Source: a virus (taxonomy: Duplodnaviria; Heunggongvirae; Uroviricota; Caudoviricetes). From it: a stretch of 20,659 nucleotides of DNA. The stretch lies in the IMG/VR virus record IMGVR_UViG_2778261527_000010, positions 1-20,659 of that record; one strand, 5' to 3'. Below the pieces are notes generated by a model. It was not told where the DNA came from. It saw only the letters and a program-made list of their open reading frames with translations, and did no database searches. The position numbers and the translations under genes are program-made. Of the stretch, positions 1 through 16,324 are shown in pieces. Within the stretch, counting starts at the first letter, position 1. Each line of letters opens with the position of its first letter.

Positions 1-19
1 ATGGTGCTCATAAATCTGG

Positions 20-25: not shown

Positions 26-39
26 TACCTTTACACATT

Positions 40-402
40 GGGGCTGATTCTGGATTCGACGGGATTTGCGAAACCCAAGGTGCATGCCGAGGGGCGGTTG
101 GCCTCGTAAAAAGCCGCAAAAAATAGTCGCAAACGACGAAAACTACGCTTTAGCAGCTTAATAACCTGCTTAGAGCCCTCTCTCCCTAGCCTCCGCTCTT
201 AGGACGGGGATCAAGAGAGGTCAAACCCAAAAGAGATCGCGTGGAAGCCCTGCCTGGGGTTGAAGCGTTAAAACTTAATCAGGCTAGTTTGTTAGTGGCG
301 TGTCCGTCCGCAGCTGGCAAGCGAATGTAAAGACTGACTAAGCATGTAGTACCGAGGATGTAGGAATTTCGGACGCGGGTTCAACTCCCGCCAGCTCCAC
401 CA
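40..402 (+). ncRNA. ssrA: tmRNA (SsrA), 363 nt
   Basis: Sequence ggggctgattctggattcgacggg...ccagctccacca matches E. coli tmRNA as I recall it; tag reading frame gcaaacgacgaaaactacgctttagcagcttaa (ANDENYALAA*) present; 3' CCA end at 400-402. Confidence 0.95.
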
Positions 403-403
403 A
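358..403 (+). repeat. attL core: 46-bp direct repeat covering the 3' end of ssrA
   Basis: atgtaggaatttcggacgcgggttcaactcccgccagctccaccaa repeated at 16279-16324 with one mismatch (g378 vs a16299). Confidence 0.85.
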
Positions 404-412
404 ATAAATCAA

Positions 413-444
413 GGGGTTACGTGAAAGCGTAGCCCTTTTTTCTT
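413..444 (+). terminator. rho-independent terminator just downstream of ssrA
   Basis: Stem ggggttacg / cgtagccc (one wobble) with loop tgaaag, followed by tttttcttt. Confidence 0.55.
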
Positions 445-510
445 TGGTAGTGGCGGCAAAACGGCGGCAGGCATTCAGTCAAGCCCAGTTGCTACTACAT
501 GCGATCGCAA

Positions 511-1284
511 TTACAACTTAAAGAGTTTCGCTTGCTCTGGATTAACAGCTTCGACGTAGTTTTTGACCCCTATTCTGTGCGGCTCATAATTGCTTGAATA
601 GAAATCAATCAGGAAGTCACTCATTTTCTGAGATGTGACTTTCATAACTCCCTTACTCAAAGTTAAATTAAACACGCTAATCTTTGACGATGGTGCCTGA
701 GTTTTACTCATGTTGGCTTGATAACCAGATTTACGCATTGCCACTAGTGCTTCGTCGTAAGCCGCTTGTAATTGGGCCAAATCGTTTGACGAGATGATCA
801 CATCATCCATAAACACACTTAGCTTGAGATCATGATGTTTGTTCAATCGGCGTAGTAAGCTACCAAAATAACTTTTATCTAAGCAGAGGGTTGCAAGTAT
901 TGGAGATTGAACAAAACCAAAAGGGAGGACATGCTTATGTGGACTATGGGACAAGTTTCTTACAGTTGAAAATGTTGAGATTTCCCGCGCTTGAGAATAG
1001 GTGAAGTAGCTCTTTAGATCACGGGTGATACGACTACGGCTCGTTGACTGAAAAAATTGTTTAATATCAACAACGGCAAAAAAATCACTTTTTAAGTGTA
1101 ATCTGGCAGCTTTAAGATGCCCACCAGTTCTTAGATGGTAAAAATAGAGTGGCGGAATCCACTTGTTTCTGACAGCCTGAAGTATCTTCCCTCCGACTTT
1201 ACGTGCCTCAACGCTTGGGACATAAACCCAAACCCCGGGCTTAATCTCAAATTTATCTTCCCACCTTTGAACTTCTATTGTCAT
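511..1284 (-). CDS. compact reverse transcriptase (257 aa), palm/finger domains only
   Basis: RT motifs in canonical order: motif A FFAVVDIKQFF, motif B' LPFGFVQSPILATL, motif C SVFMDDVII (F-x-D-D), K-T-containing domain 6; no thumb or effector extension; AT-richer than phage core. Confidence 0.8.
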   Translation of the reverse strand: MTIEVQRWEDKFEIKPGVWVYVPSVEARKVGGKILQAVRNKWIPPLYFYHLRTGGHLKAARLHLKSDFFAVVDIKQFFQSTSRSRITRDLKSYFTYSQAREISTFSTVRNLSHSPHKHVLPFGFVQSPILATLCLDKSYFGSLLRRLNKHHDLKLSVFMDDVIISSNDLAQLQAAYDEALVAMRKSGYQANMSKTQAPSSKISVFNLTLSKGVMKVTSQKMSDFLIDFYSSNYEPHRIGVKNYVEAVNPEQAKLFKL

Positions 1285-1441
1285 GAGTTAAATTGTTGTA
1301 GTTGAAGGCCATGTTAAGAACGGCGTAAACCGCACCAACTAAGCCAACAAACGCGGTTGCGCATTTGAGCATAGCGGTGATCAGTTCAACACGCGCCTTA
1401 ACTAAGCCAAGTTCGTTTGTATCCATAACTTGTTCCTCCAT
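1253..1441 (-). CDS. small predicted single-pass membrane protein (62 aa from ATG 1441; 57 aa from ATG 1426), 3' end overlaps the RT start by 32 nt
   Basis: Hydrophobic segment LITAMLKCATAFVGLVGAVYAVLNMAF; GGAGGA 7 nt upstream of the second ATG (1426); overlap suggests translational coupling with the RT. Confidence 0.5.
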   Translation of the reverse strand: MEEQVMDTNELGLVKARVELITAMLKCATAFVGLVGAVYAVLNMAFNYNNLTHDNRSSKVGR

Positions 1442-1687
1442 AGATACCTGACGTCTCTTAGCGCAAGCGCATGGCCCTAACTAAATAAAAAATAACAACC
1501 AGTTAGCCCAGAAAGCTTAACAAGTCGGCGTCCAATTACATGGCAATCAGGTAATCGGTCCGCAGTCGCAAAGCGACAAACTACATATCTACGGAGTGGG
1601 GATAAATCCCCGCTAACGTCAGGCATTGTTAATTTAACCTCAACTTATAGAAAAGTATAGTTTTAAATCATGTAGTTATGTCGCCAT
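1442..1687 (-). ncRNA. candidate structured noncoding RNA / leader upstream of the RT module (hypothetical, retron msr-msd-like)
   Basis: No ORF; perfect hairpins ggggataaatcccc (1598-1611), gtcgcaaagcgac (1565-1577), gcgcaagcgc (1461-1470); 8-bp inverted repeat cctgacgt/acgtcagg (1616-1623 vs 1447-1454) with TAGC + G-rich hairpin right after the upstream arm on the minus strand. Confidence 0.25.
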
Positions 1688-1906
1688 TTAAATCGGCAAA
1701 CCCACCTGTTTAAATTTATGAGGATGCGGCTGAACCGGATTTGACTCTTTTGGCGTTGCAATCGAACGAACAAAAGTTTCATGGGTAACAAAAGTATGGC
1801 TGCAGTTAATGTTCTGGCACTGGTTGTAACGCTCTTTGGTCAATGAAGATACCTGAAAACTGCTGCGAGTATGGGCGGCACTTCCACACAGTGGGCAAAT
1901 CATCAT
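1688..1906 (-). CDS. ogr: Ogr/Delta-family zinc-finger late-gene transcription activator (72 aa)
   Basis: MMICPLCGSAAHTRSS...YNQCQNINCSHTF with C-x2-C...C-x4-C spacing as in P2 Ogr; GGGGAGA RBS 9 nt before ATG at 1906; lies immediately after gene D as in P2. Confidence 0.85.
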   Translation of the reverse strand: MMICPLCGSAAHTRSSFQVSSLTKERYNQCQNINCSHTFVTHETFVRSIATPKESNPVQPHPHKFKQVGLPI

Positions 1907-1996
1907 TTTTCGAGTTCTCCCCATTTTTGCTAAATGCACAATAATGATATCGCATTATTCCATTTTTCAAACTTAAAAGTTCTCCATTGTGAAGAA

Positions 1997-3097
1997 TCAT
2001 TCCATTTCGAGATCATCAACCTTCACTTCAAGCTCAAGACTGGTCGTAAAACCGTTATCCGGGCTGACGGTATGTGTCAGGGTGGTAATGGTCCATTCCG
2101 CATCATCTATCGGCTGTTTAAAGCCACTGACTTTCACTGGCATTTCCGTGTAGAGATCTGCCCGCCCTTCCGCCAGTTGTAGCGAGAATGCCGCAACACC
2201 GCGTTGCAGACGTTCCCACTGCATTTTCGCCGCTCGTTCGGCGTTGCTCCGGTTGGCATAAGTGCGATTAAGTACCAGCACGTTTTCATCCGTACCCACC
2301 AGGTAATCGCCCTGCTTCGCTTCCGGCTCTTTCTTCTGCTTCTTAGTCCTGCGCTTACGCTTCACCATGGTGCTTTCTTTCTTCGCGGGTTCGCGGGTAT
2401 GCAACCAGCTGGCAATTACGCCCGTATAGGCTCCGCGATCTGCCAGGGTAAAGCGGTGACTGTCGCCGTCCTTACGCGTGATAGTGATCACCGGCAGTGG
2501 TTTACCGCTGGCGCTTTTGCCCTGTCCCTGCCGGATGAATAACAGATTGCCATTTTTCACCGACGCAATAGCACCGTACTGGCGCGCCAGCCGCATCAAA
2601 AAACTACCGTCACTCTCATTAGTCTGGTCTATATGCTCCACGGGCTTATCCGACAGGTCTTTACCCAGTGCCATCTTCAGCTTGTGACGTACGGCTATTT
2701 CCTTCACCACTTCCCCGACAGTGGTCTTGTGCCACGATTTTTCGCGGCGGGTATTCAGCGTTTCCCGAAAATCAGCACTTCGCGCCCGGATAGTCAGGCG
2801 GTCCGGTGCGCCAGTGTGTTCAATCTCGTCCACCGTGAATGCCCCTTTCGGGAAAAGCGGCTGCCCCTTCCACCCCAGCGCCAGCGTAATGACCGCACCA
2901 CGGCGCGGCAGCACTATTTTTCCGTCGGCGTCGTCCAGCTCCAGATCAAGCTGGTCTGCTTCAAAGCCCCGATTGTCCGTCAGCGTCAGACTCATCAGGC
3001 GGTTATCCAGCACAGTGGTGATATCCTTCCCCTCAATACTGATGCTGAATGCGGGAGTTTTGTTTCCTTTGTTAAGCAGTTCAGAGCTGAAATTCAC
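1997..3097 (-). CDS. D: P2 gpD-like tail protein (late control gene D)
   Basis: 366-aa translation matches gpD along its length (LTLTDNRGFEADQLDLEL, TIRARSADFRETLNTRRE, VKVSGFK, NGFTTSLELEV); ATGA overlap with the upstream U gene. Confidence 0.9.
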   Translation of the reverse strand: MNFSSELLNKGNKTPAFSISIEGKDITTVLDNRLMSLTLTDNRGFEADQLDLELDDADGKIVLPRRGAVITLALGWKGQPLFPKGAFTVDEIEHTGAPDRLTIRARSADFRETLNTRREKSWHKTTVGEVVKEIAVRHKLKMALGKDLSDKPVEHIDQTNESDGSFLMRLARQYGAIASVKNGNLLFIRQGQGKSASGKPLPVITITRKDGDSHRFTLADRGAYTGVIASWLHTREPAKKESTMVKRKRRTKKQKKEPEAKQGDYLVGTDENVLVLNRTYANRSNAERAAKMQWERLQRGVAAFSLQLAEGRADLYTEMPVKVSGFKQPIDDAEWTITTLTHTVSPDNGFTTSLELEVKVDDLEME

Positions 3098-3579
3098 GAC
3101 AGCAGCCCTCCCACCGTTTTACTGATATCGCTTAAGGCAGACGTTGTCGTATCCTGCAAATTATTCAGCTGCGCACTGAGATCACCGAACATATCGGACA
3201 GGGATTCATCCACCCGTTTGAGCGACAGGGTGAACTCAATCCGGCGCGGCATACCATCGCGGAAAAACTCCGTTTTAGTCTGATTCAGTCCCTCAATCAC
3301 ATACATGCCGTAAATCGTGCCGCTGCCTTCAATCAGGGGCCATGCTTTTCCCTGTTCTGCCATCTGCTCCAGAGCCAGCAACGACAGCCTGCCGCCCGTT
3401 ATCTCCGGCATAAGAACACCAGAAAGCGTCAGCATGTCGTTGTCTGGTCCCAGAAACTGCGTGGACGGACGTCGATTGACCCGGCTGTTTGCCGCATGTC
3501 GCCAGCTGCGTTGATACTGCAGTTCCTGATACGGCACAGTGCGCAGCATAAACACGTACAATCCCAGCACCATCATCAT
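3094..3579 (-). CDS. U: P2 gpU-like tail protein
   Basis: 161 aa, MMMVLGLYVFMLRTVPYQELQYQRSWRHA... matches gpU; overlapping start/stop with T fragment and D. Confidence 0.85.
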   Translation of the reverse strand: MMMVLGLYVFMLRTVPYQELQYQRSWRHAANSRVNRRPSTQFLGPDNDMLTLSGVLMPEITGGRLSLLALEQMAEQGKAWPLIEGSGTIYGMYVIEGLNQTKTEFFRDGMPRRIEFTLSLKRVDESLSDMFGDLSAQLNNLQDTTTSALSDISKTVGGLLS

Positions 3580-3995
3580 GCTTCGTATCCCCCCTGATCG
3601 CTGTAGTTACTCCTGGCTTTTGCCTTCAGCCTGCGTTCACGTTCATCAAGCTGGCGGGCCACCTCCCGCGCAATATCCTGCGCACTTTGTCCTGGCTGCG
3701 TCTGAATGATGATCTGCATCGGTGCCTCAATCCGTTGAACGGGCGGCACAGTGGCTGCACGACTCACCATCGCTTCGCCGCCTTTCGCGGGAAGTGCCAA
3801 AGAATGCAACGGTGGAAGCTCTGCAGGCGCGGCAGCAACGCCCATCATTCCGGCAACAACGGCAGCCAGTGCAGCTGTATTTCTCCGGCTGGTCACATTT
3901 GCCGGGCCGTTAACAATTTCCGGCCCGTTTTCACCGACGATGCCAAACTGCCCGCGCGGGATATAGCCGCCGCTGTCATACATCCCCGCAAAGCC
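3576..3995 (-). pseudogene. T: 3' fragment (~135 codons) of tail tape-measure gene (gpT-like); 5' part deleted
   Basis: C-terminal tape-measure-like sequence (GYGFAGMYDSGGYIPRGQFGIVGENGPE...) ending in-frame before U; reading frame runs into unrelated portal-gene sequence at ~3984-4003. Confidence 0.7.
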
Positions 3996-4003
3996 ATATC
4001 CCC

Positions 4004-4399
4004 ATGACCGATGCTGCGCAGAACCAGGAGGATGTGAACAACCTCCGCAATGCGATGAAAAGCGCCAAAGGTCCTGGTAACTTCCGTAACCTGTTTATGT
4101 ACTCGCCTAACGGTAAAAAGGACGGGCTTCAGATTATCCCGTTGTCAGAAGTGGCGGCGAAGGATGAGTTCCTGAATATCAAGAACGTGAGCCGGGACGA
4201 CATGATGGCGGCGCATCGTGTGCCGCCACAAATGATGGGGATAATGCCTAATAATGTCGGGGGGTTTGGGGATATCGAAAAGGCAAGCACAGTATTTGTA
4301 CGAAATGAGCTACTGCCTCTACAAAAAATGTTTCTAGAAATAAATAATTGGTTAAACGATAGAATTATAAATTTTTCAACCTACGAACTAAAAATTTAA
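4004..4399 (+). pseudogene. Q: 3' fragment of portal gene (gpQ-like); 5' part deleted
   Basis: Translation ...FRNLFMYSPNGKKDGLQIIPLSEVAAKDEFLNIKNVSRDDMMAAHRVPPQMMGIMPNNVGGFGDIEKA... resembles P2-family portal C-terminus; opposite strand to tail genes as in P2; last ~25 codons are AT-rich. Confidence 0.6.
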
Positions 4400-4415
4400 T
4401 TAAGATAATTTAGTC

Positions 4416-4433
4416 GGCCTCATTTCTGAGGCC
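4416..4433. terminator. bidirectional hairpin between convergent portal fragment and lmuB-like gene
   Basis: Perfect stem ggcctca / tgaggcc with 4-nt loop, flanked by A/T-rich sequence. Confidence 0.45.
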
Positions 4434-4439
4434 ATATTT

Positions 4440-6098
4440 TCATCTTGAAAGTATCACCCGTTCAAACAATGGCATTAATTGAGAATAAACATTATCATAA
4501 TGTTCATCATTTAAAAGATGATATTTATTTTCAAGTTTGATGCTATTAAAACCATCCATGAAACTCTCATAACCAACAGTTCCAATAATAATCTGATTTG
4601 TAAGGGAAAACCCATCCAAGCATAGTTTTATAAGCTTATGCGTATGCTCTGGATCCAAATCTTGTTGCTTTGGAGAGTCTATTACTATAGGCATATTCTC
4701 AACTGAAGAGTTGCTTTTCATAACACTAAGCAGCGCGTAGTGAAATGCAAATATACCTCGAGGACCTCGACTACCAGTCTTACCCTTAGTAATATTATTA
4801 TAACTACTAAGGCCACCTACCTTTGTATTTTCGACACCAAGCTCTTTAAGAGCTTTAGCGAAATACTCTTTGAAACAGTCATTTATTTTAACAGTTCTTT
4901 TCTTATCATTGTATACTTCTAATTCTTCTTGTAATTCTGTCAACTCGCCTTCTTTTCGACCAATCTCAACGAATAACTCATCTAACTGTGAAATAAAAGT
5001 AGATTCAATTTCATGGTATGCGGCAGATTTAATAACATCATGAAGCGTTATTTCCGATTGAGTTTCTAAAATCAGCGCCTGCAACGCCTCTGAAGCAGCC
5101 CTTGACTCTTCTAGCTTTTGATTCAATTTAGGAATATTTTCCTCAATCTTGCTTTTCTCATCTGCAAGAACAGCAATGTTTTTGAGCATTTCATCTCTAT
5201 GGTTTATATAATTATATTCATTTACTGAATAAGCAACATTATCATCTCGAAAATTCGAAATCTCAAATTCATTATCAATAATCGCAGTTATCTCTTTGAG
5301 TTCACTCTCAAGGAAATTCTTCCTAGAATATAACCTCAAAAGATTCAATCTATATTCTGTCTGAACTAAATTTAAATTAGAATATTCATTTAATATACGT
5401 TCCAACTTTGATTTATAAAAATCCAAATCAACATCAAATAAAACCACGCCAAAAGATTCATCAATCTTACTTTTGCTTCTTTTTAGAACCTTAACAAAAC
5501 CATCTAACTCTGAAATTTTAACTTTAATTTCTTTGATTTTCCCTTGAACTGTATAATATTCCTTTGGCTTAATTCCAGAGTGATAGTAAAGAATGTTTTT
5601 TTGCCATTCTGAGTACATACTCATGTTTTCGAAAGAATTTATCACCGCTTTCCATCCTTCATCCTGATCAATAAAGAATGGGGCAAACAAACAAGCAGGG
5701 TTTGCCTGAGTCGTAGCACCCGTATATTTATTATGTAATTCCAGTTTAAAACCAAATATATTTGAAACACGAGATGCTAATGACGAAATCGTGTTATACA
5801 CGACTAGATCATCATTCTTCAAATCAAAGACACCAATAATCTTTTTATAACGCAAAAAAATAAAATCATTTTCCCCGTTATTAATTTCCACCAGTGTAAC
5901 TATATCATCTGATTTCCAAGCATCATCAAGCCTTAAATCTCCACCTAATGTGTAATAAAGACTTTTAATCAGGCTTGATTTACCAACATCATTTGTACCA
6001 TATATGAAGTTAACCCCTTCTGAAAACTCATAAGAAAAAGCTTTTCTGTCTCTTAATGAGAGTATTTTTATATTTTTAAATTTAACGTTATTCTTCAT
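4440..6098 (-). CDS. SMC-like ABC ATPase, LmuB-like (DUF3732-type) component of a Lamassu-like defence system
   Basis: N-terminal Walker A GTNDVGKSS, long coiled-coil middle (E/K/L-rich), C-terminal IVIDSPKQQ resembling the D-Q-P Walker-B variant of LmuB; GAGGA RBS before ATG 6098; 11-nt overlap with upstream gene; AT-rich. Confidence 0.6.
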   Translation of the reverse strand: MKNNVKFKNIKILSLRDRKAFSYEFSEGVNFIYGTNDVGKSSLIKSLYYTLGGDLRLDDAWKSDDIVTLVEINNGENDFIFLRYKKIIGVFDLKNDDLVVYNTISSLASRVSNIFGFKLELHNKYTGATTQANPACLFAPFFIDQDEGWKAVINSFENMSMYSEWQKNILYYHSGIKPKEYYTVQGKIKEIKVKISELDGFVKVLKRSKSKIDESFGVVLFDVDLDFYKSKLERILNEYSNLNLVQTEYRLNLLRLYSRKNFLESELKEITAIIDNEFEISNFRDDNVAYSVNEYNYINHRDEMLKNIAVLADEKSKIEENIPKLNQKLEESRAASEALQALILETQSEITLHDVIKSAAYHEIESTFISQLDELFVEIGRKEGELTELQEELEVYNDKKRTVKINDCFKEYFAKALKELGVENTKVGGLSSYNNITKGKTGSRGPRGIFAFHYALLSVMKSNSSVENMPIVIDSPKQQDLDPEHTHKLIKLCLDGFSLTNQIIIGTVGYESFMDGFNSIKLENKYHLLNDEHYDNVYSQLMPLFERVILSR

Positions 6099-7167
6099 AA
6101 GAAACATCCTCAAAAGTCAACTTTATAATTGCATATATAGCAATCATAAATTTCTCTTCTTGATTTAATAAAGAGAAATCCCCGTCCCCCGCTGCAATTG
6201 TTTTTTCGAGTGTAAAGAAGAGGTCTCGAACAGGTATCTCACGATAATGCTCTATACTCTTTAGAGCCGATTGAAATTCCAGAAAATAAAGATAGTATAT
6301 TGAATTGACATTGAGCACTTTTATTGATATGCGTGTAAAAACTGATTGTAATTTAATCCCCTCATAAGGATCTGAGAAAGTACCAAGCAACATACAAACC
6401 TGTTCCCATTTTGGCGTTATTTTTATGCTTGCAATGAGTCCAGATAATAAATCAGTTACAAATTCTGAAGATATACCTTTCTTTAGTACTAAATCTTCAA
6501 AAGTTTTGATATCACTAGAAGCAACACTAACCTTCTCATTACACTTATTGATTAATAATTTAGTGAATGCTGTTGAATTAATACCATGATCATCCCCAAA
6601 GTAAGAATTCAAAAAAACTGCAACTTTCCCGTATAAATGTGAGTTAGGATCTAACAAACTAAGATCAGATGTTTTAAATTTTATTTTATCAAGAGGAACT
6701 TCTTTTTTAGTATTTAGCTGCTCTTGAACCTTACTAATTATAATTTCCTTATGCTCATTATTAAGATCACTACCTTTTTCGTTATTATCATTTAAGAAAT
6801 CGAATCCAGCATTCGATAACAGAACCATATAAATTTCGTGACCAACGAATTGATAGAAATGGTCATATAGTTTTGCAACAAATGATTTAGGTTTAGCTTT
6901 TGTTGCGTTCACTATTGCTGCGAGTGTCCATTTACCATCTTTTTTTGTTTTAACTTGGATAAACTCAGCACTAGTCGGAGAAACAGATGAATTCAATACA
7001 AGAATATCGTCATGATATTCAAATAGAAATAAATATTTCTCCTTTTCTTTTTGTTTCTCAAGTAAATAATTTATCCCCCAAGAGGCTTGATATGAAAAGC
7101 CTCTCAACGCGTTTTCACCGCCCCGTTCGGCTTGATTTACTGTAATTAACGCATCTGATAACGCCAC
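6088..7167 (-). CDS. LmuA-like effector with N-terminal Cap4/DUF4297-type PD-(D/E)xK-like nuclease region
   Basis: N-terminus GFSYQASWGINYLLE...EYHDDILVLN...FIQVKTKK resembles the DUF4297 D...QxK core; GTG start, in-frame stop two codons upstream; AT-rich; sits at the P2 old/tin position. Confidence 0.5.
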   Translation of the reverse strand: MALSDALITVNQAERGGENALRGFSYQASWGINYLLEKQKEKEKYLFLFEYHDDILVLNSSVSPTSAEFIQVKTKKDGKWTLAAIVNATKAKPKSFVAKLYDHFYQFVGHEIYMVLLSNAGFDFLNDNNEKGSDLNNEHKEIIISKVQEQLNTKKEVPLDKIKFKTSDLSLLDPNSHLYGKVAVFLNSYFGDDHGINSTAFTKLLINKCNEKVSVASSDIKTFEDLVLKKGISSEFVTDLLSGLIASIKITPKWEQVCMLLGTFSDPYEGIKLQSVFTRISIKVLNVNSIYYLYFLEFQSALKSIEHYREIPVRDLFFTLEKTIAAGDGDFSLLNQEEKFMIAIYAIIKLTFEDVSYEE

Positions 7168-7310
7168 TCTATATATCCCTATTGTACTGCTTTTTTTTGA
7201 TACAAATTACCTTAGCTTCACCATCAAGTCCACAGATTCATGGCTAAGCGCGCGCTCGTATCCCCGCCACGCCTGCCCGCTTTATGTAGTGGTTTTCATG
7301 CACCTGCATG

Positions 7311-7342
7311 ATCTACGCAAAAGCCCACCAGTTCTGGCGGGC
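7311..7342 (-). terminator. rho-independent terminator after the tum/DinI-like operon
   Basis: Minus-strand stem gcccgccag / ctggtgggc (one mismatch) followed by ttttgcg. Confidence 0.45.
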
Positions 7343-7477
7343 CTTAGCAAAAACGATCCTCAAACGATCATGCGATCTCATGCGGCATAGACATGCACTA
7401 CAGAGCTAACGCCTCGCAAGGGCTCGTTGTTCAACCTTGCTGACGCCAGAAACAAGTTCAGACGCCAGCAACGTTTC

Positions 7478-7711
7478 TTAATGCAGCCAGCTGTCGTCTT
7501 CCCACACCTTCTGCATAATTTTCATCACTTGCTTCCTTTCTTCGTCCAGTTGCAGTCCGGTCAGTTCCACACCGTTAGAGCTACCTTTGCGGATACGAAT
7601 TACCGTTTTGGGATACAGGGGGTGCAGATTACGGTAAAGCTCGGATTCAAGGGCGTCCAGGGTCGACTGGCTAATCTTCTGCTCTTTATCGATCATTATT
7701 TCAATGCGCAT
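7478..7711 (-). CDS. DinI-family protein (186 Tum C-terminal-domain-like)
   Basis: MRIEIMIDK...LDALESEL...IRIRKGSSNGVELTGL...KQVMKIMQKVWEDDSW parallels E. coli DinI; AGGTGA RBS 6 nt before ATG 7711. Confidence 0.75.
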   Translation of the reverse strand: MRIEIMIDKEQKISQSTLDALESELYRNLHPLYPKTVIRIRKGSSNGVELTGLQLDEERKQVMKIMQKVWEDDSWLH

Positions 7712-7721
7712 AAAAGTCACC

Positions 7722-7910
7722 TCAGCTGATGACATCCATTGAGCGGTTGTATTCGTGGCTTCTGATTTTTGCCATGAGTTCATCAGTCAATTCAGAAACC
7801 CACTGCAGAGCCAGTCCCTTCTCTTCATCACTACACTCACTGGCCGCTACAAGCTTAAGAAAAAAATCAATGCGCTGGAGCTTCAAAGACTCCAAAAAAT
7901 AGTCCTGCAT
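7722..7910 (-). CDS. small protein (62 aa), first gene of the LexA-controlled operon; possibly the N-terminal part of a split tum
   Basis: AGGAGG RBS 4 nt before ATG 7910; ends 10 nt before the DinI-like start; a frame open upstream of the DinI start overlaps it. Confidence 0.5.
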   Translation of the reverse strand: MQDYFLESLKLQRIDFFLKLVAASECSDEEKGLALQWVSELTDELMAKIRSHEYNRSMDVIS

Positions 7911-7951
7911 CTTTCCTCCTATGACACCACACGCAATACTGTATGTATAAC

Positions 7952-8063: not shown

Positions 8064-10478
8064 TTAATACAGGTTTCGCCACTTATCATCTTCCTGCAAA
8101 CGCTGGTTCCGATAGAAGATACGCAGGCCTGCTCCTGACGGAATACTGCCGCCGCGAAGGAGTAAATCGACCTCTTTCTCGCTACCATCAAACCCTCTGG
8201 ACTTCAGCTCATACTCGAGCTGCTGTCGCTGATGGTCTGTAATTCGCTGTTTGTAGTCTTTACGCCGTTTCGGTTTAACCAGGTGTAACCTTGCTGCCAG
8301 TTCCCGGCGTTCTTTTTTGCTCATACTGTGCAGGTAATCGTGCAACTCCTTGTCATCCATGCGGGTGATATCCGTTCTGGTATCCCCATCAGCTGATTTG
8401 TCTTTCCCTTGTTGGTTCAAATTTTCAGCAAGGGGACAGTTATTGCCACGAGTCCAAGGGGCGCAAGCGCCCTGGTCGGCTGCCGCCTCCTGAACGTCAA
8501 CGGCTTTACGAACCATTTTCCACTTCACTGCATGAGTGCAGATCTTGCCCTCTGCAATGGGTGACCAGATGCCATAAATACGAATGCCGTGATCGCCATA
8601 GGCGGTCGGCTCTTCGTTGATTTCATAAGCGGTTCTGATGAGGTGATATTTACGGGGAACCAGTACGCCGCCCTGCTTCATGATGTAGGTGGCAAAACAA
8701 CCAGCATCAGCAGCAGCCAGGATGGCATCAAGGCGCGGGTTATCCAGTACCGGCGCACCTGCTTTTTTGTCCCCCTGTTGCCTTGCCGCCTGACCAGCCA
8801 GCAATCGCAGTTCACGGTAAGCCTGACGCCCCGGAATGCCAAAGAAGCGGAATTGCTGAACACGATGCAAAGACGCCCAGGCATTCACGTATTCAGCGTT
8901 ATCACGCAGAGATTTACCCGTTTCCTTGCTGATCTCGCCAGCCAGACCACGCCCGTCAATGTTCTTACTGATGTATTTCGCTATGTAGCTTGTCGGCGTT
9001 CCTTTGCGCGGGTTAATCAGCTCAGACTTAAAGCGCGGCCCCGTGTTATTGCCCAGCTCCTCGCGGTCTTCACGGATAGCAAACTTACGCAACAATGCAG
9101 TAATGGCTCGGCGGTCTTTTTTGCGCATGAAACACAACAGGTGCCAGTGAACTGTGCCGTCGTGATGCGGCTCAGCCACCCGCACGCCATACCAGCGCAA
9201 CCCGGCTTTGTGCATCGCCTTACGAAATGCAGCAAACATACCGACCAGATAATCGCTGCTTTGTCTTACCGTCGCATTTGTCCAGGTCGGGTTGGGCCTG
9301 CCGTTATTTAGCGTGGAATGGAAACGTGACGGACAGGTGATGGTGTAGAAAACGGCGCAGTCACCGCGCATTTCCGCGATAAGCTCCAGACCTTTAACAC
9401 AGGCCATCATCTCATTGCGGCGATGCGCAGGGTTGCTGCTGCTGGCGTTTACCACATCCTCCATGTCCAGCGTGTCGCCGTCTTCGTTCACCAGTTCATG
9501 AGAACGGAAAAACTCCAGCGACTTACGGCGCTGCTCACGTTTATGCAACACGGCTTCATAGCTGACATAGGGAGATGCTTTTTTGCTGACAAGGCAGACA
9601 GCACGCAACTGCTCTTCCCGCCATTCGCAACGCATCTTCCATAATTTCCGATACCACCAGTCGGCGCACAACATACGCGCCAGCGAACCCGGAATGAGTT
9701 CATAGGGCACGGGTTTACGGCGGTTTCTTTTCCGACGGAGTTGCTCAAACGCAGGCGGGATGACATCCAGACGCAGGGTTTCCGCTGCCACCCTTTCCCA
9801 TGTCTTGCGGATTTCTTCTGGCTTAACGTCATCGGTGGCATACAAATCGCCACAAGCGGCATCAAGGCACATACTCATATGCGCAGCTACCAGGGTGGAC
9901 AGGCGTTTCACCTGATCCTGACTCATTTCAGGCAGGATCAGCAGGCCGTCCAGCCCTTCATGGCTTGCCATAAAGCGAAAAGATGCAGATAGCTGACTGT
10001 CGCGTACATGCTCCAGTCGTTCCAGACATGGCTTAATCGTCTCACGTAAATAGCGGGAATAAGCCTTTGGCCTGCCCAGGCTGCTGAAGTATTCAATACG
10101 TTGCATCAGCGGCTTGCTGATATGGGAAGGCTGGGCGTTGACGTCCGCCAGAATGACCATATCCGGATTAAAACACTGCTGCTCATGCGCCAGCTTTGCC
10201 CGACTAATGAGCTTATCCTGTTCCATTTCGCGCTGGACAGGATCACGGGATTCATTAAAGAAATAACGCTCCCAGACCTGATCACTCAGCGCCTCACGGC
10301 GCAGCTGTTCCTGCTCGTTATCGGCAGCGTACAGAGTGATCAGGTTTGAAAGCGTAGAAACCGGCGCAACTTCCGCCGGGTCCAGATAAGGGTTAATGGC
10401 CTTTTTCGGGCTGTTCCATGAGAACGATGCGGCAGCTTCGTTAAAGCCGCAGCAGTTGTTCATATCGGCATGACTCAT
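8064..10478 (-). CDS. A: P2 gpA-like rolling-circle replication initiator endonuclease (804 aa)
   Basis: Active-site tyrosine motif [13 protein letters not shown] and metal-binding [15 protein letters not shown] as in P2 A; ATGA overlap with upstream dam-like gene. Confidence 0.9.
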
Positions 10479-11332
10479 GCACGTACTCCGTACACGGCAG
10501 AACTATCCACGCCACGCGAATAATCAAATCCCACCCAGCAGCGCGGCCCAGAAACAGCAATGATTTCTGTTGCTGATTTACCCTCGCCAGCTGCCACACC
10601 GATGCTGCGTTTTGCCTTGATGTAGTGGTGAGTAAAATTGCGATACAGCGAACGGATCAGGGATGTGTCACTGTTAGAAACAATGACCGGATGTCCTTCT
10701 GATGACCGATGTTCAAGAACAGATGCCAGGTGATACTGGTCATCTTCAGTGAAGCCGTCAGTGTGATAGCCGGAAAACGTACCGTCATACGGCGGATCGC
10801 AATACACCACATCCCCCGCCTTCAACATCGCCAGCGTTTCATCAAAGCTGGCGCAGATAAACGTTGCTCGCTGGGCCTTTTCTGCAAATGCGCGAATTTC
10901 TTTTTCAGGGAAATACGGATTTTTATAATTACCGTAGGGAATGTTGAAATGCCCGCTCTTGTTATAGCGACATAAACCACGGTAACCGTGACGATTGAGA
11001 TACAGGAAATATACCGCTTTCATGAAATCAGTAATTTCAGTTGAGTAATTAAACTCCTGCCTTATGTTGTAATAAGCCACCTCCCTGTTTGCGATCTCAA
11101 ATAAAACTCTGGCGCGAGATATAAACGATTCACAATCAGCGGCAACCTTTTTATAGAGGTTGATTAAATCAGGATTAATATCCGCAACCAGATAGCTGGG
11201 ATAATCCGTCTCCATCATCACAGCACAGGAACCCGCGAAAGGTTCAACCAGTCGCGGGCCAGCAGGAAGATGTTTTTTCAGTTCGGACATTATGGCAGTT
11301 TTATTTCCCGCCCATTTCAGGATGGTGCTCAT
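10475..11332 (-). CDS. Dam-like N6-adenine DNA methyltransferase (285 aa)
   Basis: ILKWAGNK and [10 protein letters not shown] (AdoMet-binding), DPPY catalytic motif; GGAGGT RBS 5 nt before ATG 11332; ATGA overlaps with both neighbours. Confidence 0.8.
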
Positions 11333-11556
11333 ACAGCACCTCCGTTGTAATGTTTGCCTTTCAGCTCTGCGATTTCCTGACAGGTAATGCAAAGCTGCAC
11401 ACCCGGAATGGCACGGCGGCGTGCTGGCGGAATTGGCGCTTCACACTCAATGCAAAGCACGCGTGACACGCCCGGTGTTTTGGCACGGGCTGCACGGATA
11501 TGGCGCTGGCGTTCTTCTTCAACGCGCTGCTGTACGAGATCCATTGCATCAGCCAT
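11329..11556 (-). CDS. TraR/DksA-family C4 zinc-finger protein
   Basis: C-x2-C...C-x2-C (CIECEAPIPPARRRAIPGVQLCITCQ); start overlaps stop of upstream ORF (TAATG). Confidence 0.7.
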   Translation of the reverse strand: MADAMDLVQQRVEEERQRHIRAARAKTPGVSRVLCIECEAPIPPARRRAIPGVQLCITCQEIAELKGKHYNGGAV

Positions 11557-11789
11557 TAGTGGATCTCCTGCGCTTCGTTCTGGATTGCTTCAGCAGTCAC
11601 ACGCAGCAGTTCTGCTGCTTCGACGTGGTTTAGCTGGCAGATTGTGATATGACACGCTAGGCTATCAAGGCGGGCAGCCATTGCCTCAGCCCTTGCCCGG
11701 CGTTCTTCCAGACGAGCCTCTGTCAGTAAAATATTAAGCCCTGCGTCATCCGGTCTGGTTTTGGTCGAGAGGGTTTCAATATTACGCAT
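11556..11789 (-). CDS. hypothetical phage early protein (77 aa)
   Basis: AGGAGA RBS 7 nt upstream of ATG 11789; coupled to the TraR-like gene. Confidence 0.45.
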   Translation of the reverse strand: MRNIETLSTKTRPDDAGLNILLTEARLEERRARAEAMAARLDSLACHITICQLNHVEAAELLRVTAEAIQNEAQEIH

Positions 11790-11856
11790 AATCAATTCTC
11801 CTGAATTTAGATAAAGGGATGCACGGCGGGTTTACGCCATTAATTTCATTAGTTGC

Positions 11857-12198
11857 TTAATTCGGCATGGTTAGCCGTCTGGGAAATAAGCTCACCACTG
11901 CACGAAAATGATTCATTGCTTTAATCAACTCCCGCTTTTCGTCAGTGGTCAGCTCATTAATGCTGATGCTATGACGTTCAGCTGGAATTTTTGCCATAAA
12001 GAATATGGCAGCCAGTGCCCGTTTATTTTGTTCATTATTGATATCCCGTGGATCACGCATATCTTTAATAAACCGCTCAAGCTCTGACTCAATATTCAAA
12101 CCAAAAACTTTCGCCCTTAACTCCGCAATATGATTAAGTCCATTCAGGCGTTCACCGGGTCTTAATGGAACAGTCGCCGCAGCGCCTTCAATAGCCAT
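11857..12198 (-). CDS. hypothetical phage early protein (113 aa)
   Basis: GGGGGA RBS 6 nt before ATG 12198; in the 186 fil/dhr-equivalent position. Confidence 0.5.
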   Translation of the reverse strand: MAIEGAAATVPLRPGERLNGLNHIAELRAKVFGLNIESELERFIKDMRDPRDINNEQNKRALAAIFFMAKIPAERHSISINELTTDEKRELIKAMNHFRAVVSLFPRRLTMPN

Positions 12199-12362
12199 TT
12201 GTTCCCCCGTTTTTTCGTAGATAGTTCTGCCAGCAATTCATCTTGTGAACGGCACGGATGCCAGCGTTTACCATCCTCACCCATGATCCAGCCGTGACCG
12301 TAGTGCATTGCCGGACTTTGTTTTACCAGCAGCGATGCAAATGATGGTTCTTTCGTCAGCAT
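12162..12362 (-). CDS. hypothetical small protein (66 aa)
   Basis: AGGTG RBS before ATG 12362; 37-nt overlap with the downstream gene. Confidence 0.35.
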   Translation of the reverse strand: MLTKEPSFASLLVKQSPAMHYGHGWIMGEDGKRWHPCRSQDELLAELSTKKRGNKWLLKALRRLFH

Positions 12363-12369
12363 AAGCACC

Positions 12370-12879
12370 TCACAGCAAACCGAATGAAGCACCGAGGCCA
12401 GTTACAGTATCAACTGCACTTGCCATCGCAGGATTAACCTGTAAACGGGCCTGCAATGAAACAGCAGCTAACGCCATCAGTCGTGTAACAGAGTTAATGC
12501 TGCTGATAGCATCACGACGACCTGCACTGGTTTTTACATCGCCAGATACCGCACCTGCAGCAACACGCCCGATCTCTGCGGTTGCACTCATGACGTAATG
12601 TGGCAGTTTCTCTTTTGCCACCTCATTAATCGGTACACATGGCAGGCAGTGAATCTGTGCCAGAAAACCGTCTACCAGCGTTGAATCTTCCGTCAGATCG
12701 GTAAGTAGCCAGATATCTGGCGCATTGAGCTGATGCGGTTGATCTGGGTTGAGTTTGTTTCGCAGAGTCTGGACATTCATTCCTGCACGTTCTGCCAGCT
12801 TCGCCATATTGTGACGAAGTGCAAAAGCTCTACAGGCTTCATCAAAATGCGGGTGTTTGGAAATCTTATAATCAAACAT
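12370..12879 (-). CDS. cII: phage 186 CII-like transcriptional activator (169 aa)
   Basis: MFDYKISKHPHFDEACRAFALRHNMAKLAERAGMNVQTLRNKLNPDQPHQ... HTH protein matching 186 CII in length and sequence as I recall it. Confidence 0.85.
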   Translation of the reverse strand: MFDYKISKHPHFDEACRAFALRHNMAKLAERAGMNVQTLRNKLNPDQPHQLNAPDIWLLTDLTEDSTLVDGFLAQIHCLPCVPINEVAKEKLPHYVMSATAEIGRVAAGAVSGDVKTSAGRRDAISSINSVTRLMALAAVSLQARLQVNPAMASAVDTVTGLGASFGLL

Positions 12880-12911
12880 GCTACCCCCTTAGAAAGTTCT
12901 CATAATTGAAC

Positions 12912-13154
12912 TTACTTACCAACAATGACGCGGAAGTTGGAATGACCGAGGGATTCACGGACCTGATCGGTTTTGTACATTAAATAACGCAGGCTTACGC
13001 GGCCTTTGTTTTTTTCTTTCTTGACCATGTATTTAGCAAGCTGACCATGGTGAATTTTTTGATACACAGAGCCGCGGGAGATACCTTCCCATTCCGCGAA
13101 CTCTGCAGGCGTAGCCATCTCTTTTGGTACACGAATTGAAATATCAGTGCTCAT
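12912..13154 (-). CDS. apl: Apl/Cox-like small HTH excisionase/regulator (80 aa)
   Basis: First gene of the lytic operon, divergent from cI; HTH-like EFAEWEGISRGSVYQKIHHGQL; GGGAGA RBS. Confidence 0.6.
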   Translation of the reverse strand: MSTDISIRVPKEMATPAEFAEWEGISRGSVYQKIHHGQLAKYMVKKEKNKGRVSLRYLMYKTDQVRESLGHSNFRVIVGK

Positions 13155-13210
13155 AGTGCAGTATCTCCCGATTAAGGTTTGGTTTACGTCGTTTTATCTC
13201 GTTTTACTTG

Positions 13211-13259
13211 ATTCAATATTTGATACATCGAGATACTACGATCCAATATTTGATACGTC
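13211..13259. repeat. two direct repeats (caatatttgatac, 13214-13226 and 13244-13256; 17/19 identity when extended) in the immunity switch region; candidate operator sites
   Basis: Identical 13-mers 30 bp apart; one lies between -35 and -10 of the lytic promoter, the other just downstream of its predicted start. Confidence 0.45.
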
Positions 13260-13261
13260 AA
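13233..13261 (-). promoter_or_regulatory. pR-like lytic promoter for apl-cII operon
   Basis: Minus strand TTGACG-17 nt-TAGTAT; correctly placed upstream of apl. Confidence 0.55.
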
Positions 13262-13273
13262 CAGGATTAAAAA

Positions 13274-13906
13274 ATGATACAGGTAAAGGTTGGAGAGAAT
13301 ACAGGGGGAAGAGAGGCTATCCATAGACTAATGGCAGCCTATGATTTCAAGTCCAGACAGCAACTTTGCGATCACTTAGGCGCATCAAAAAGCACCATGG
13401 CAAACAGATACTTAAGAGATAGTTTTCCTGCAGAGTGGGTGATTCAGTGCGCCTTGGAAACAGGAGTTTCTTTATTGTGGCTAACCACCGGACAGGGGGA
13501 GCCAGGTCCAAACATTGAACCTAAAAAAAATATCAATTCCGTGAACTCCAGCAAGGTTGTACCTCTTTCTGAACTAGTATCTCCTGAAATTGACAAGGCG
13601 ACTCTCAACGGTGGTTTATTGGTCGATGCTGGAAAAGCAATCATTGATAGCAGCATACTCCCCTCAGACTCAAGCAACCTACTGCTGGTGACTACTTCTG
13701 GTGATTCTTATTTAATAGATCGCAACCAAACACCACCAGTAAATGGTATGTGGTTAGTCGATATCGACGGGATAAAAAGCATCGTTAAATTGACTCGACT
13801 CCCGGGAAACAAATTAGTAGTGCATCAGGATGATTCATCGTTTGAGTGCGGTCTGGATGACATTGAGGTAGTAGGCCGCGCACTGAAAATCATTAAGAGC
13901 CTTTGA
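13274..13906 (+). CDS. cI: CI-like immunity repressor (210 aa)
   Basis: N-terminal HTH (SRQQLCDHLGASKSTMANRYLR); divergent from apl; immediately upstream of int as in 186. Confidence 0.75.
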   Translation: MIQVKVGENTGGREAIHRLMAAYDFKSRQQLCDHLGASKSTMANRYLRDSFPAEWVIQCALETGVSLLWLTTGQGEPGPNIEPKKNINSVNSSKVVPLSELVSPEIDKATLNGGLLVDAGKAIIDSSILPSDSSNLLLVTTSGDSYLIDRNQTPPVNGMWLVDIDGIKSIVKLTRLPGNKLVVHQDDSSFECGLDDIEVVGRALKIIKSL

Positions 13907-13907
13907 T

Positions 13908-14924
13908 ATGACCATCAGAAAACAGCCGAACGGAAAATGGTTGTGTGAGTGCTATCCCAATGGACGCAATGGCAAGCGCGTGCGTAAGCAATTTGCCACG
14001 AAAGGCGAAGCCATTGCGTTTGAAAGCTTCACAATGGAAGAAGTGAATAAAAAACCGTGGTTGGGTGAAAAGGATGATCGGCGACGCCTATCAGAATTAA
14101 TTGAGCTTTGGTATTCCCTGTATGGTCAGACACTCGCAGACCCCAAGCGCCTCATGGCGAAACTTAGAATTATCTGTAATGGCCTAGGCGACCCCATCGC
14201 CTCAGAACTGACAGCCGGAGACTTTACGAAATACCGCGAAGCACGGTTAAAAGGTGAAATACGAAATGAAGATGGCACGCTTATGTCGCCCGTTAAGCCC
14301 CGCACGGTAAACCTTGAACAACGCAATCTATCATCGGTGTTCGGTACATTAAAAAAACTAGGACACTGGTCAGCACCAAACCCGCTGGCAGGACTTCCGA
14401 CCTTCAAAATTGCCGAAGGTGAGCTGGCTTTTCTTTCCACGGACGAAATCAAGCGCCTGTTGGCGGCATGTGCTGAATCTCAAAGCCCTAGCTTACTAAT
14501 GATTGCAAAAATATGCCTAGCTACTGGCGCACGGTGGAGTGAAGCAGAAAATTTGCAGGGCCATCAGTTATCCAAATACCGCATCACTTATACCAAGACG
14601 AAGGGCAAGAAAAACCGTACCGTGCCAATATCTCAGGATCTGTACAACGAACTTCCTAAAAATCGAGGGAAGTTATTCTCACCATGCAGAAAAGCCTTTG
14701 AGCGTGCAGTAAAGCGGGCCGATATTGAGCTTCCTGAGGGTCAATGCACCCATGTATTACGTCATACATTCGCCAGCCATTTTATGATGAACGGAGGAAA
14801 CATACTTGTGCTTAAAGAAATTTTAGGCCATGCCGATATAAAAATGACCATGATTTATGCGCACTTTTCTCCAGATCATCTGGAGGATGCGGTAACTAAA
14901 AATCCTTTAAACTATATAGAGTGA
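13908..14924 (+). CDS. int: tyrosine integrase, P2/186 family (338 aa)
   Basis: Catalytic-region motifs ATGARWSEA, HVLRHTFASHF, LGHADIKMTMIYAHF; adjacent to attR. Confidence 0.9.
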   Translation: MTIRKQPNGKWLCECYPNGRNGKRVRKQFATKGEAIAFESFTMEEVNKKPWLGEKDDRRRLSELIELWYSLYGQTLADPKRLMAKLRIICNGLGDPIASELTAGDFTKYREARLKGEIRNEDGTLMSPVKPRTVNLEQRNLSSVFGTLKKLGHWSAPNPLAGLPTFKIAEGELAFLSTDEIKRLLAACAESQSPSLLMIAKICLATGARWSEAENLQGHQLSKYRITYTKTKGKKNRTVPISQDLYNELPKNRGKLFSPCRKAFERAVKRADIELPEGQCTHVLRHTFASHFMMNGGNILVLKEILGHADIKMTMIYAHFSPDHLEDAVTKNPLNYIE

Positions 14925-14928
14925 AAAC

Positions 14929-16164
14929 ATGGACGAAAAAAAATCCAGTACTCAATTAGAATCAGAAAAGAAAAATGCACTCTGGATTGATCACTTTCTT
15001 GAACGACTATTGAGCCATGAAGAATTAAATCCACCATTCAACATTAAAGGCGATATAGCCAGTGATTTTTCTAATCGATGTAAAATTTATATGACTTTAA
15101 TTGATGAATCAATAAAAGCAGACATGAATGGATGCGGTAGGGAACTTAGAGTTCTAAAAGGACGAGTTGCAAATATTCATAAGTGCATACAAAAAACTCT
15201 AGAGGAGTTTTTGTCTGGAGATATTAAAAAAGCATATGACATTTTCGATGACATTATGTCAAAGGAGGCAACAATAGCCCAACTAAATCGAATTAGTATC
15301 TTGCTAAAAGATTTTTGCAATAAGGAAAAGCCACTTTATCGGGTCAGAAAATCAGAAACGCCTTTGATTGAGCACAACCAAATATTTCATATTCCGTTTT
15401 CAAAAAGACATTTAGTGAATGCTCAAAGATATTCAGTCGCAGGCCAACCCTGCTTATATCTCGGTACATCCTTGTACGTATGTTGGCAAGAGATGGGAAA
15501 GCCAGATTTTGATAAATTATATATATCATCCTTCGTTACAAACGATGTAAATTCAACAATTTTAAATTTTGCTTCTCCTCACCTTTCACTTCCAATTAAA
15601 AAAACTGTTGATGAAAATAAAATATATGATGAAAACAGAACAAAAGCATCATACTTGATATTCTGGCCATTACTAATCGCTTGCAATTATTTAAAACGCG
15701 TAGAAAATTCATCATTCACACCTGAATATATAATCCCAAATTTATTAATGCAGTGGATCGGTCGTCGGGTTAAATCACCAATAGCGGGGATAGCATATTA
15801 CTCTACAAAAATGCCGAATTCTAGGAGCAGTAAATATTCTGTTAATGTTGTATTACCACCTAAAGCAACCTATAAGCAATCTATTCAATATGATTTTTGT
15901 CCAAAACTAGCTTCTTACTTCGAATTTACAGCCCCTATGTCTTGGCAAGTACTTAAAACCTTAGATTATCAAAATCAGTTTGAGATATCGAATGAACAAA
16001 GAATTGCCATCGATTACTTACGAAAAAAAGAAAAATTATCAGGTATAGCGAATTTTGAGGAAGACATCGTGAAGCTATATCCTCTTACAGATTTTCACAA
16101 ACTTGAATTATTGGTTGATCGGTTATTCAAACATCAAAAAATCGAACATACACTGCACACGTAA
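14929..16164 (+). CDS. RES-domain protein with N- and C-terminal extensions (411 aa)
   Basis: RES signature in order: PLYRVRKSE ... NAQRYSVAGQPCLYLGTSLYVCWQEMG (R, E) ... PIAGIAYYSTKMPNS (S); strongly AT-rich versus flanking int; lies between int and attR. Confidence 0.6.
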   Translation: MDEKKSSTQLESEKKNALWIDHFLERLLSHEELNPPFNIKGDIASDFSNRCKIYMTLIDESIKADMNGCGRELRVLKGRVANIHKCIQKTLEEFLSGDIKKAYDIFDDIMSKEATIAQLNRISILLKDFCNKEKPLYRVRKSETPLIEHNQIFHIPFSKRHLVNAQRYSVAGQPCLYLGTSLYVCWQEMGKPDFDKLYISSFVTNDVNSTILNFASPHLSLPIKKTVDENKIYDENRTKASYLIFWPLLIACNYLKRVENSSFTPEYIIPNLLMQWIGRRVKSPIAGIAYYSTKMPNSRSSKYSVNVVLPPKATYKQSIQYDFCPKLASYFEFTAPMSWQVLKTLDYQNQFEISNEQRIAIDYLRKKEKLSGIANFEEDIVKLYPLTDFHKLELLVDRLFKHQKIEHTLHT

Positions 16165-16278
16165 GTGGCGACACTTTGGCGGCAGAGCATTAAATACGCC
16201 TAAAACGACCAAACACAAATTAAGACTAATCAGTTGTTTTATTTGATAATTATATGTTTTTATTATAGTAATAATGGT

Positions 16279-16324
16279 ATGTAGGAATTTCGGACGCGAG
16301 TTCAACTCCCGCCAGCTCCACCAA
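16279..16324 (+). repeat. attR core: second copy of the 46-bp ssrA 3'-end repeat (one mismatch)
   Basis: atgtaggaatttcggacgcgagttcaactcccgccagctccaccaa; the mismatch would break a T-arm base pair, consistent with the displaced non-functional copy. Confidence 0.85.

Follow-up and report, generated by a model that had tools for sequence, protein, structure and literature searches.

Two separate accessory-gene slots very probably flank the phage attachment site, attP, of the P2/186-like phages that integrate into ssrA, and each gains, loses and replaces its cargo independently of the other. The window analyzed here is a stretch of 20,659 nucleotides (IMG/VR virus record IMGVR_UViG_2778261527_000010, positions 1 to 20,659) containing a 15.9-kb P2/186-like prophage that is bounded by two copies of an att core. 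In this prophage the slot between ogr and the attachment site holds a reverse transcriptase (RT) module, and the slot between the integrase gene int and the attachment site holds a gene for a 411-residue protein with a predicted RES fold. A sequence-only reading of the window had pointed out that these two modules, which lie at opposite ends of the prophage, would be neighbors across attP in the excised phage, and it had left a choice between two independent moron hotspots and the joint acquisition of modules that may interact. The distribution of both modules among related phages and prophages agrees with the former and not with the latter.

The geometry itself was described correctly. The 3′ end of the RT open reading frame (ORF) lies 107 nt from the core at attL, the stop codon of the 411-residue ORF lies 114 nt from the core at attR, and joining the two ends predicts an attP form in which the RES stop codon is followed by 114 nt, the 46-nt core, 107 nt and the RT stop codon, placing two convergent genes 267 bp apart. 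The predicted phage-form order of int, RES-like gene, attP, cargo and ogr is likewise borne out. Escherichia phage Cartapus (NC_070909) encodes, in virion order, the repressor, the integrase, a putative RES protein, attP, a BRCT-like gene and ogr, and the attP-joined viral contig L091 shows the same arrangement. The gene past attP in both is a 160-residue BRCT-like gene, not an RT.

Slots on either side of a compact attP

What sets the limits of the cargo? attP is a fixed, compact unit of about 227 bp, consisting of a 114-nt arm, the 46-nt core and a 67-nt arm, and the cargo starts just outside it. On the ogr side, the sequence shared with relatives that have other cargo stops at position 470; on the int side, homology to relatives with five other cargoes starts at 16161–16166, at the RES stop codon. 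Approximately 770 E. coli genomes match the 67-nt ogr-side arm at about 95% and diverge after it. The outer edge of each arm carries two GGCG(G/A)CA repeats 11 nt apart and, with P2 attP as the basis of the analogy, these are probably arm-type sites of the integrase (Int). The terminator-like hairpin in the ogr-side arm would end ssrA transcription in attL and, in attP, would be expected to end the CI-int-cargo transcript. The arms had been described as squeezed into ~110 bp on each side, and this is not the case, because cargo-free phages have identical arms of equal length and the cargo sits outside them.

The contents of the slots vary while their flanks do not. For the int side we examined 80 IMG/VR loci picked only by integrase similarity, 72 of which are evaluable. 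A RES-like gene occupies the slot in 21 of the 72, a member of a 327–375-residue protein family in another 21, a member of a 510-residue family in eight, an anti-phage dCTP deaminase in three and other ORFs in three; the slot is empty in the remaining 16, where the int stop codon is only 19–25 bp from the arm. For the ogr side, an IMG/VR sample drawn by gpD similarity yielded 29 loci with the ssrA-type arm. There the 160-residue BRCT-like gene predominates (17/29), the RT module is found twice and other ORFs three times, and seven loci are empty, with ogr about 65 bp from the arm. The int side therefore accepts at least five cargo families, and the ogr side accepts the RT module, the BRCT-like gene and three others, between flanks (an integrase that is 90–96% identical, and the arms) that these phages share. 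This combination of conserved flanks, unrelated alternative contents and an empty state is that of accessory-gene hotspots, and it upholds the suggestion that each end of the att region is an independent moron hotspot. Since empty states exist, the cargo is dispensable.

One slot extends from the int stop codon to the arm, the other from the arm to ogr, and we propose that their contents are replaced as cassettes among related phages, because the slot boundaries are flush and the flanks conserved. Replacement would proceed by homologous exchange through these flanks, namely the 3′ end of int and the arm on one side, and the other arm together with ogr/D across the core. Crossover at the core by Int, such as might occur when a phage enters a cell whose prophage has the same specificity, may add to the shuffling, since such a crossover would genetically separate slots that are about 270 bp apart; it would also explain the missing linkage between their contents. 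Markers on the two sides of lambda att are classically known to re-assort through Int.

Independent distribution of the RT module and the RES-like genes

Do the RT module and the RES-like genes travel together? The RT module is present at 99.5% identity in 27 of 5,426 complete E. coli genomes. We read the int side directly in 11 of these RT-bearing prophages, whereas a twelfth was assigned by a DNA match; RES-like calls were confirmed with a hidden Markov model (HMM) of the family. The RT faces RES-like genes of three different alleles in C2 and OY754371, SCU-115 and JL05; a 343-residue protein in EcPNK004, E6 and GPEC673; a 327-residue protein in 442/2; a 510-residue protein in IZSBS22; and the anti-phage dCTP deaminase in 5735, CV839-06 and ETEC1731. 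One RT module thus stands opposite at least five int-side cargoes, and RES-like genes are no more frequent in RT-bearing prophages (4/12) than in the background (21/72; Fisher p = 0.74).

The converse comparison gives the same picture. Prophages with a RES-like gene and no RT carry the 160-residue BRCT-like gene between ogr and attL, and RES-like genes also stand opposite nothing. None of 80 RES-like viral loci has an RT within reach, and those that could be evaluated carry the BRCT-like gene instead; these 80 loci and 56 RT viral loci have no contig in common. Similarly, no phage record contains both genes: the RES-like gene is found without the RT in phages Cartapus, RE2010, SE479_1PHIH2 and SopEPhi, and the RT without a RES-like gene in the Klebsiella Kp48xx records, the one examined of which has a gene of the 510-residue family beside int. 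In P2-like phages with other integrases (L110, L117, L132), int has no cargo beside it and directly faces an RT homologue about 300 bp away; still other RT homologues adjoin tRNA-Met. Related prophages therefore contain each module without the other and show no enrichment of the pair, and the suggestion of joint acquisition or interaction is not supported.

A strong form of that suggestion is that the RT and the RES-like protein are one co-acquired system split by attP, in which the RT's cDNA, or its loss, licenses an effector that depletes nicotinamide adenine dinucleotide (NAD+), the two genes becoming neighbors in the excised phage and nowhere else. We consider this very unlikely. It draws on the convergent arrangement in the predicted attP form, on the resemblance of both modules to parts of defense systems, on the absence here of the partner that RES toxins normally need, on the occurrence of different RES-like alleles opposite one RT allele, and on the slightly raised number of E. 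coli genomes that have both modules (four against about 1.5 expected). The components of a single system would, however, be expected to co-occur far above chance, and they do so neither in the RT-bearing prophages, where four non-RES cargoes take the int-side place, nor in the RES-like viral loci. Nor do matching alleles covary: RES-like genes opposite the RT encode proteins about 51% identical to that of the window where compared, and unrelated genes stand there instead in other prophages. In the lysogen, where defense must act, the two genes are moreover 14–34 kb apart and belong to separate transcription units.

Some points weigh against reading the slots as independent. The mechanism of exchange is one that we infer from the positions of the slot boundaries. 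Both modules are present in four E. coli genomes against 1.4–1.7 expected (one-sided p = 0.05–0.08), in an insensitive DNA search uncorrected for shared ancestry. The int side was resolved in only 12 RT-bearing prophages, several of them clonal, and an independent distribution is compatible with an epistatic interaction that may operate in strains having both modules. With regard to the DNA searches, a megablast search of the 5,426 complete E. coli genomes with the RES gene returned no near match, and a more distant DNA search found RES-like genes in 41 of the genomes, which is too insensitive a count to serve as a baseline (29% in the IMG/VR protein sample versus about 5%).

Alternatively, the genes could serve the phage life cycle and not defense, with the RES-like protein modulating host NAD+ at induction and the RT taking part in phage replication. 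In favor of such roles, the RES-like gene directly follows int in an apparent single operon, and in all 80 loci the RES-like gene accompanies this integrase type and no other. However, neither gene is required, since both slots are empty in otherwise similar phages. The RES-like genes are hypervariable (39–83% identity) beside an int gene conserved at 90–96%, a pattern that fits arms-race genes and not core functions, and a known defense gene, the anti-phage dCTP deaminase, occupies the int-side slot as well. We therefore regard a life-cycle function as highly improbable. There is likewise very little chance that the cargo was captured from the neighboring host chromosome by imprecise excision, as in specialized transduction, its end position being mechanical: although the ssrA locus is itself a defense island, with an EcoRII-like restriction-modification system and PD-T4-3 just past attR, although relatives carry other islands at this position and the AT content of both cargoes exceeds that of the backbone, aberrant excision would have swapped a phage arm for host DNA and left the cargo abutting the core, yet both arms are intact with the cargo on their phage side, and the same cargoes are found in phages with differing neighboring host DNA.

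We thus favor two independent slots. Adjacency across attP does not imply functional linkage, because the att site divides two freely exchanging slots, and in this respect a tempting but wrong inference is settled.

The cargo and its defective prophage

What is the int-side cargo of the window? The 411-residue protein, whose gene begins 4 nt after int, has no match at curated thresholds in Pfam, PADLOC or NCBIfam; its match to the RES family (PF08808; 13.6 bits, E = 0.068) lies below the cut-off of 23.2. When PDB sequences were searched with a profile from the RES-like alignment, no RES chain was recovered; fold comparison alone brought up RES toxins. The AlphaFold model computed from 45 homologues is confident (pLDDT 88.8) and has the RES, or ADP-ribosyltransferase-like, catalytic fold. 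Residues R167, E188 and S292 are invariant in the 45 homologues and, lying in motifs that resemble the RES signature, are candidates for its conserved Arg, Glu and Ser. On this predicted structure the protein is a “long RES” with extra N- and C-terminal helical regions. No adjacent gene encodes an Xre-type (DUF2384) antitoxin, as int lies directly before the gene and the att arm directly after it; some relatives have a 375-residue gene of no recognized family upstream of the RES-like gene. In the lysogen the RES gene probably shares a transcript with CI and int, and the protein is probably an abortive-infection effector that targets NAD+.

All 80 RES-like viral loci have the order CI, int (90–96% identical), RES-like gene, about 140 bp and ssrA core. 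In these loci (L018–L097, from IMG/VR) the RES-like gene begins 4–70 nt downstream of the integrase gene and is only 42–83% identical, so that divergence jumps sharply at the int stop codon. The two unannotated families of 327–375 and 510 residues (L001 4402–5529, L007 5135–6166, L009 4660–5643 and L002 34882–36414) are about as frequent in the int-side slot as the RES-like genes. Strain C2 and loci L030/L031 have a gene of the 327–375-residue family between int and a RES-like gene, a hint that the slot can optionally hold two genes. The 327-, 343-, 375- and 510-residue cargo proteins have no match in Pfam, NCBIfam or PADLOC, neither the RES-like gene nor the RT matches a PADLOC system, and the dCTP deaminase of relatives is the only recognized defense gene among the att-flanking cargo.

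The ogr-side cargo differs from the neighboring ogr-D-U genes in GC content (0.425 versus 0.52) and would constitute a retron-like module of a noncoding RNA (ncRNA), a 57-residue membrane peptide and a 257-residue RT. The RT has the catalytic motif FMDD, equivalent to YxDD, and belongs to a family of 72 clusters from Enterobacterales and beyond, nearly all of which are unusually small (244–270 residues). It falls outside every curated RT family at the PADLOC and NCBIfam thresholds: the best PADLOC match is RT_VI (63 bits, 5.7e-18), and NCBIfam retron_St85 scores 49.8 against a cut-off of 235. The 57-residue ORF is conserved at 77–100% across RT loci and has no family match in Pfam, PADLOC or NCBIfam.

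The ncRNA upstream of the RT operon has termini, CCTGACGTTAGC and GCTAAGAnnCGTCAGG, that pair with each other and are near-invariant even where the RTs are only 42–49% identical. A closing helix of 12–13 bp is present in 16 diverse loci, as expected of a retron-like ncRNA with pairing a1/a2 ends, and an internal hairpin contains compensatory changes, with three sequences altered on both sides. A search of the region against Rfam returned no credible family. The center of the ncRNA is hypervariable in the loci compared (L104–L150) and in several is built from short tandem repeats whose copy number differs, for example TGGGACTCC about 8–11 times in L133 and L135, ACTGGGACTC in L132 and L150, and CTGGGCTTA in L106. 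In layout the module is retron-like or like a defense-associated reverse transcriptase (DRT) system, and it belongs to no class described so far.

A more ambitious proposal is possible and at present doubtful: the att-flanking slots could form a two-sided cassette site at which core crossover re-assorts left and right cargo into new defense combinations, both cargoes being undescribed abortive-infection systems. This tentative proposal includes, as a joint part with the same limited likelihood, that the long RES protein is a single-chain NAD+-targeting effector produced from the CI-int lysogenic operon, and that the 257-residue RT works with a conserved ncRNA whose center is, in several loci, a tandem repeat.

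The prophage, at positions 404–16278, is of the P2/186-like (Peduoviridae) kind, is defective and has integrated into the 3′ end of ssrA (Table 1). By Pfam, ogr, D/U/T, A, the CI/Cox-Apl/CII switch and the tyrosine integrase are present in P2 order, and the prophage is collinear at 97–99% with annotated full-length prophages. From attL the order is RT, small ORF, ogr, gpD, gpU, T remnant, portal remnant and the Lamassu genes LmuB and LmuA, followed by gpA, a methylase, the CII/Fil/Cox region, CI, int and the 411-residue ORF. The ssrA 3′ end is duplicated at both prophage ends as a 46-nt direct repeat, the only long one in the window, whose copies are identical at 45 of 46 positions and differ only at G378/A16299. 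E. coli ssrA has G at this position, so that the original crossover would have occurred within the 3′-most 25 nt of the core.

Table 1. Coordinates of features in the window.
Feature	Position	Strand	Basis or remark
ssrA (transfer-messenger RNA), host integration target	40–402	+	ARAGORN; Rfam RF00023, 295.8 bits
att core copy at attL	358–403		ssrA 3′ end; G at 378
Conserved arm, ogr side of attP (67 nt)	404–470		Terminator-like hairpin 411–438; GGCGGCA repeats at 452 and 463
ogr-att cargo slot: RT module (ncRNA, small ORF, RT)	471–1626	−	
Reverse transcriptase, 257 residues	511–1284	−	Pfam RVT_1, 1.9e-21
Hydrophobic ORF, 57 residues	1253–1426	−	ORF list extends to 1441; overlaps RT start; 57-residue protein in RefSeq relatives
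Structured ncRNA upstream of RT operon, ~183 nt	1444–1626	−	Minimum free energy −64.4 kcal/mol, z −3.7
ogr, late-gene activator	1688–1906	−	Pfam Ogr_Delta, 6.7e-22; RefSeq annotation in relatives
gpD, gpU and C-terminal remnant of tape-measure gene T	1997–3983	−	Pfam Phage_GPD, Phage_P2_GpU; collinear with IZSBS22 prophage to 4007
Deletion junction, gene T to portal gene Q	4003–4007		5-nt overlap
Portal remnant, 131 residues	4004–4399		Portal Pfam match in identical contigs
Lamassu: LmuB 4440–6113; LmuA with Cap4 nuclease domain 6088–7167	4440–7167	−	PADLOC LmuB 8.6e-254, LmuA 4e-143; Pfam Cap4_nuclease
gpA replication endonuclease	8064–10478	−	Annotation of relatives at 98% identity; Pfam Phage_GPA in identical contigs
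CI repressor and tyrosine integrase, 1 nt apart	13274–13906; 13908–14924	+	Pfam Int_N, Phage_integrase; Phage_CI_repr in identical contigs
int-att cargo slot: 411-residue RES-fold protein	14929–16164	+	
Conserved arm, int side of attP	16166–16278		GGCGACA at 16167, GGCGGCA at 16178
att core copy at attR	16279–16324		A at 16299

The virion gene set (portal, terminase, capsid, lysis, tail) is reduced to remnants. Alignment by blastn to the full-length prophage of IZSBS22 (L002) places window positions 1–4007 at 622–4628 and 4003–12198 at 23651–31847; a 19-kb deletion from inside the tape-measure gene T to inside the portal gene has thus removed the head, lysis and tail genes. Because of this deletion the excised form would here be a nonviable 15.9-kb circle; full-length relatives with matching prophage ends exist. 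The same deleted form is present in other assemblies (GCA_904809585.1 and Logan ERR3062200). Mini-elements of about 6 kb between two ssrA cores (L023 1031–7097, L024 and L092), which keep only the BRCT-like gene, ogr, D, U, CI, int and the RES-like gene, are more extreme deletion derivatives in which both att-flanking cargoes are kept. The Lamassu system is complete, has a GC content of 0.32 and lies in the classical gpA-portal (old/tin) hotspot; counting this third slot, the small defective prophage has cargo in three slots.

Finally, we note the DNA outside the prophage. A second island lies past attR (16552–20659), in which an EcoRII-like restriction gene is split into ORFs of 247 and 85 residues (it is intact, at 402 residues, in strain 442/2) and adjoins an intact Dcm-type methylase gene; PD-T4-3 (GIY-YIG) follows at 19640–20413, and then the start of an IS009 small RNA match. 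In some genomes a degenerate copy of part of the core and the ogr-side arm (window positions 388–464, 94% identical) lies near ypjA, several kb past attR (L002 42027–42098; L012 and L014 around 1650–1750), and it is probably the scar of an older ssrA integration.

Relation to known hotspots and defense systems

Variable cargo next to the att sites of P2 phages is already published, and the finding itself is in this sense ordinary. In one survey, the int-att region is a minor P2 defense hotspot that holds about 3% of the recognized defense systems of P2-like prophages and is mobilized with the phage (PMC13586616). Its position and phage group match those described here, and the dCTP deaminase of relatives is a recognized system of this kind. 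The survey, however, counted only systems found by DefenseFinder or PADLOC, to which the RES-like, 327–375-residue and 510-residue families are invisible, and the available text does not name the ogr-att slot as a separate hotspot. The iLund4u preprint (bioRxiv 10.1101/2024.10.15.618418) likewise describes a third P2 hotspot, flanked by CI and a tail protein; from tail gene D to CI in phage order, this interval spans ogr, attP and int, and is the region studied here. Where iLund4u describes one hotspot, we find two slots split by the ~227-bp conserved attP, each with an empty state. The classical P2 hotspots (old/tin between gpA and portal, and Z/fun among the tail genes) and psu-int of P4 share the logic of conserved flanks, swappable anti-phage cargo and prophage-encoded defense (Rousset et al. 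2022, PMC9122126). They lie elsewhere and are bounded by two genes, in contrast to the att-flanking slots, which are bounded by recombination-site DNA.

The cargo, too, has known counterparts. Cartapus and the Salmonella phages SopEPhi and RE2010 have the same arrangement of repressor, integrase and RES-like gene, and in Cartapus this last gene already bears the annotation “putative RES protein, NAD+ binding domain.” The RES-like proteins of these phages are 40–44% identical to that of the window, and their records contain no RT. SopEPhi integrates in ssrA as well. In comparison to the RES-Xre modules (MbcT/MbcA, Res/Xre, ParT/ParS, NatT/NatR), whose RES proteins have about 150–250 residues, the 411-residue protein is set apart by its added helical regions, by the lack of an adjacent Xre antitoxin gene and by a score below the Pfam threshold. 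The RT module resembles retrons and DRT10 in combining a structured ncRNA, a small membrane protein and an RT; its RNA termini pair like retron a1/a2, and its best HMM matches are retron RTs. DRT10 consists of an ncRNA, a SLATT protein and a UG17 RT (PMC12632851). The present module differs from retrons and DRT10 in that its RT has only 257 residues and passes no curated threshold, UG17 included, and its 57-residue protein has no SLATT match. We rejected an identity with DRT10/UG17 in view of the missing UG17 match and of the described partner, which is a SLATT protein.

What is added here is that there are two slots with sharp limits and empty states, that the RT/RES pairing is one of many combinations, and that most int-side slots are filled by families which defense finders do not recognize. 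About three-quarters of the sampled int-side slots are filled, mostly by three unannotated families. In P2-like phages specific for ssrA, the int-att and ogr-att intervals are therefore sharply bounded places in which to look for candidate anti-phage genes that escape current tools. Two uncharacterized candidates of this kind are the long RES protein and the small RT with its ncRNA, more interesting than their adjacency and worth follow-up of their own. If the two slots do form a two-sided cassette site, core crossover between phages of equal specificity would generate new combinations of defense genes.

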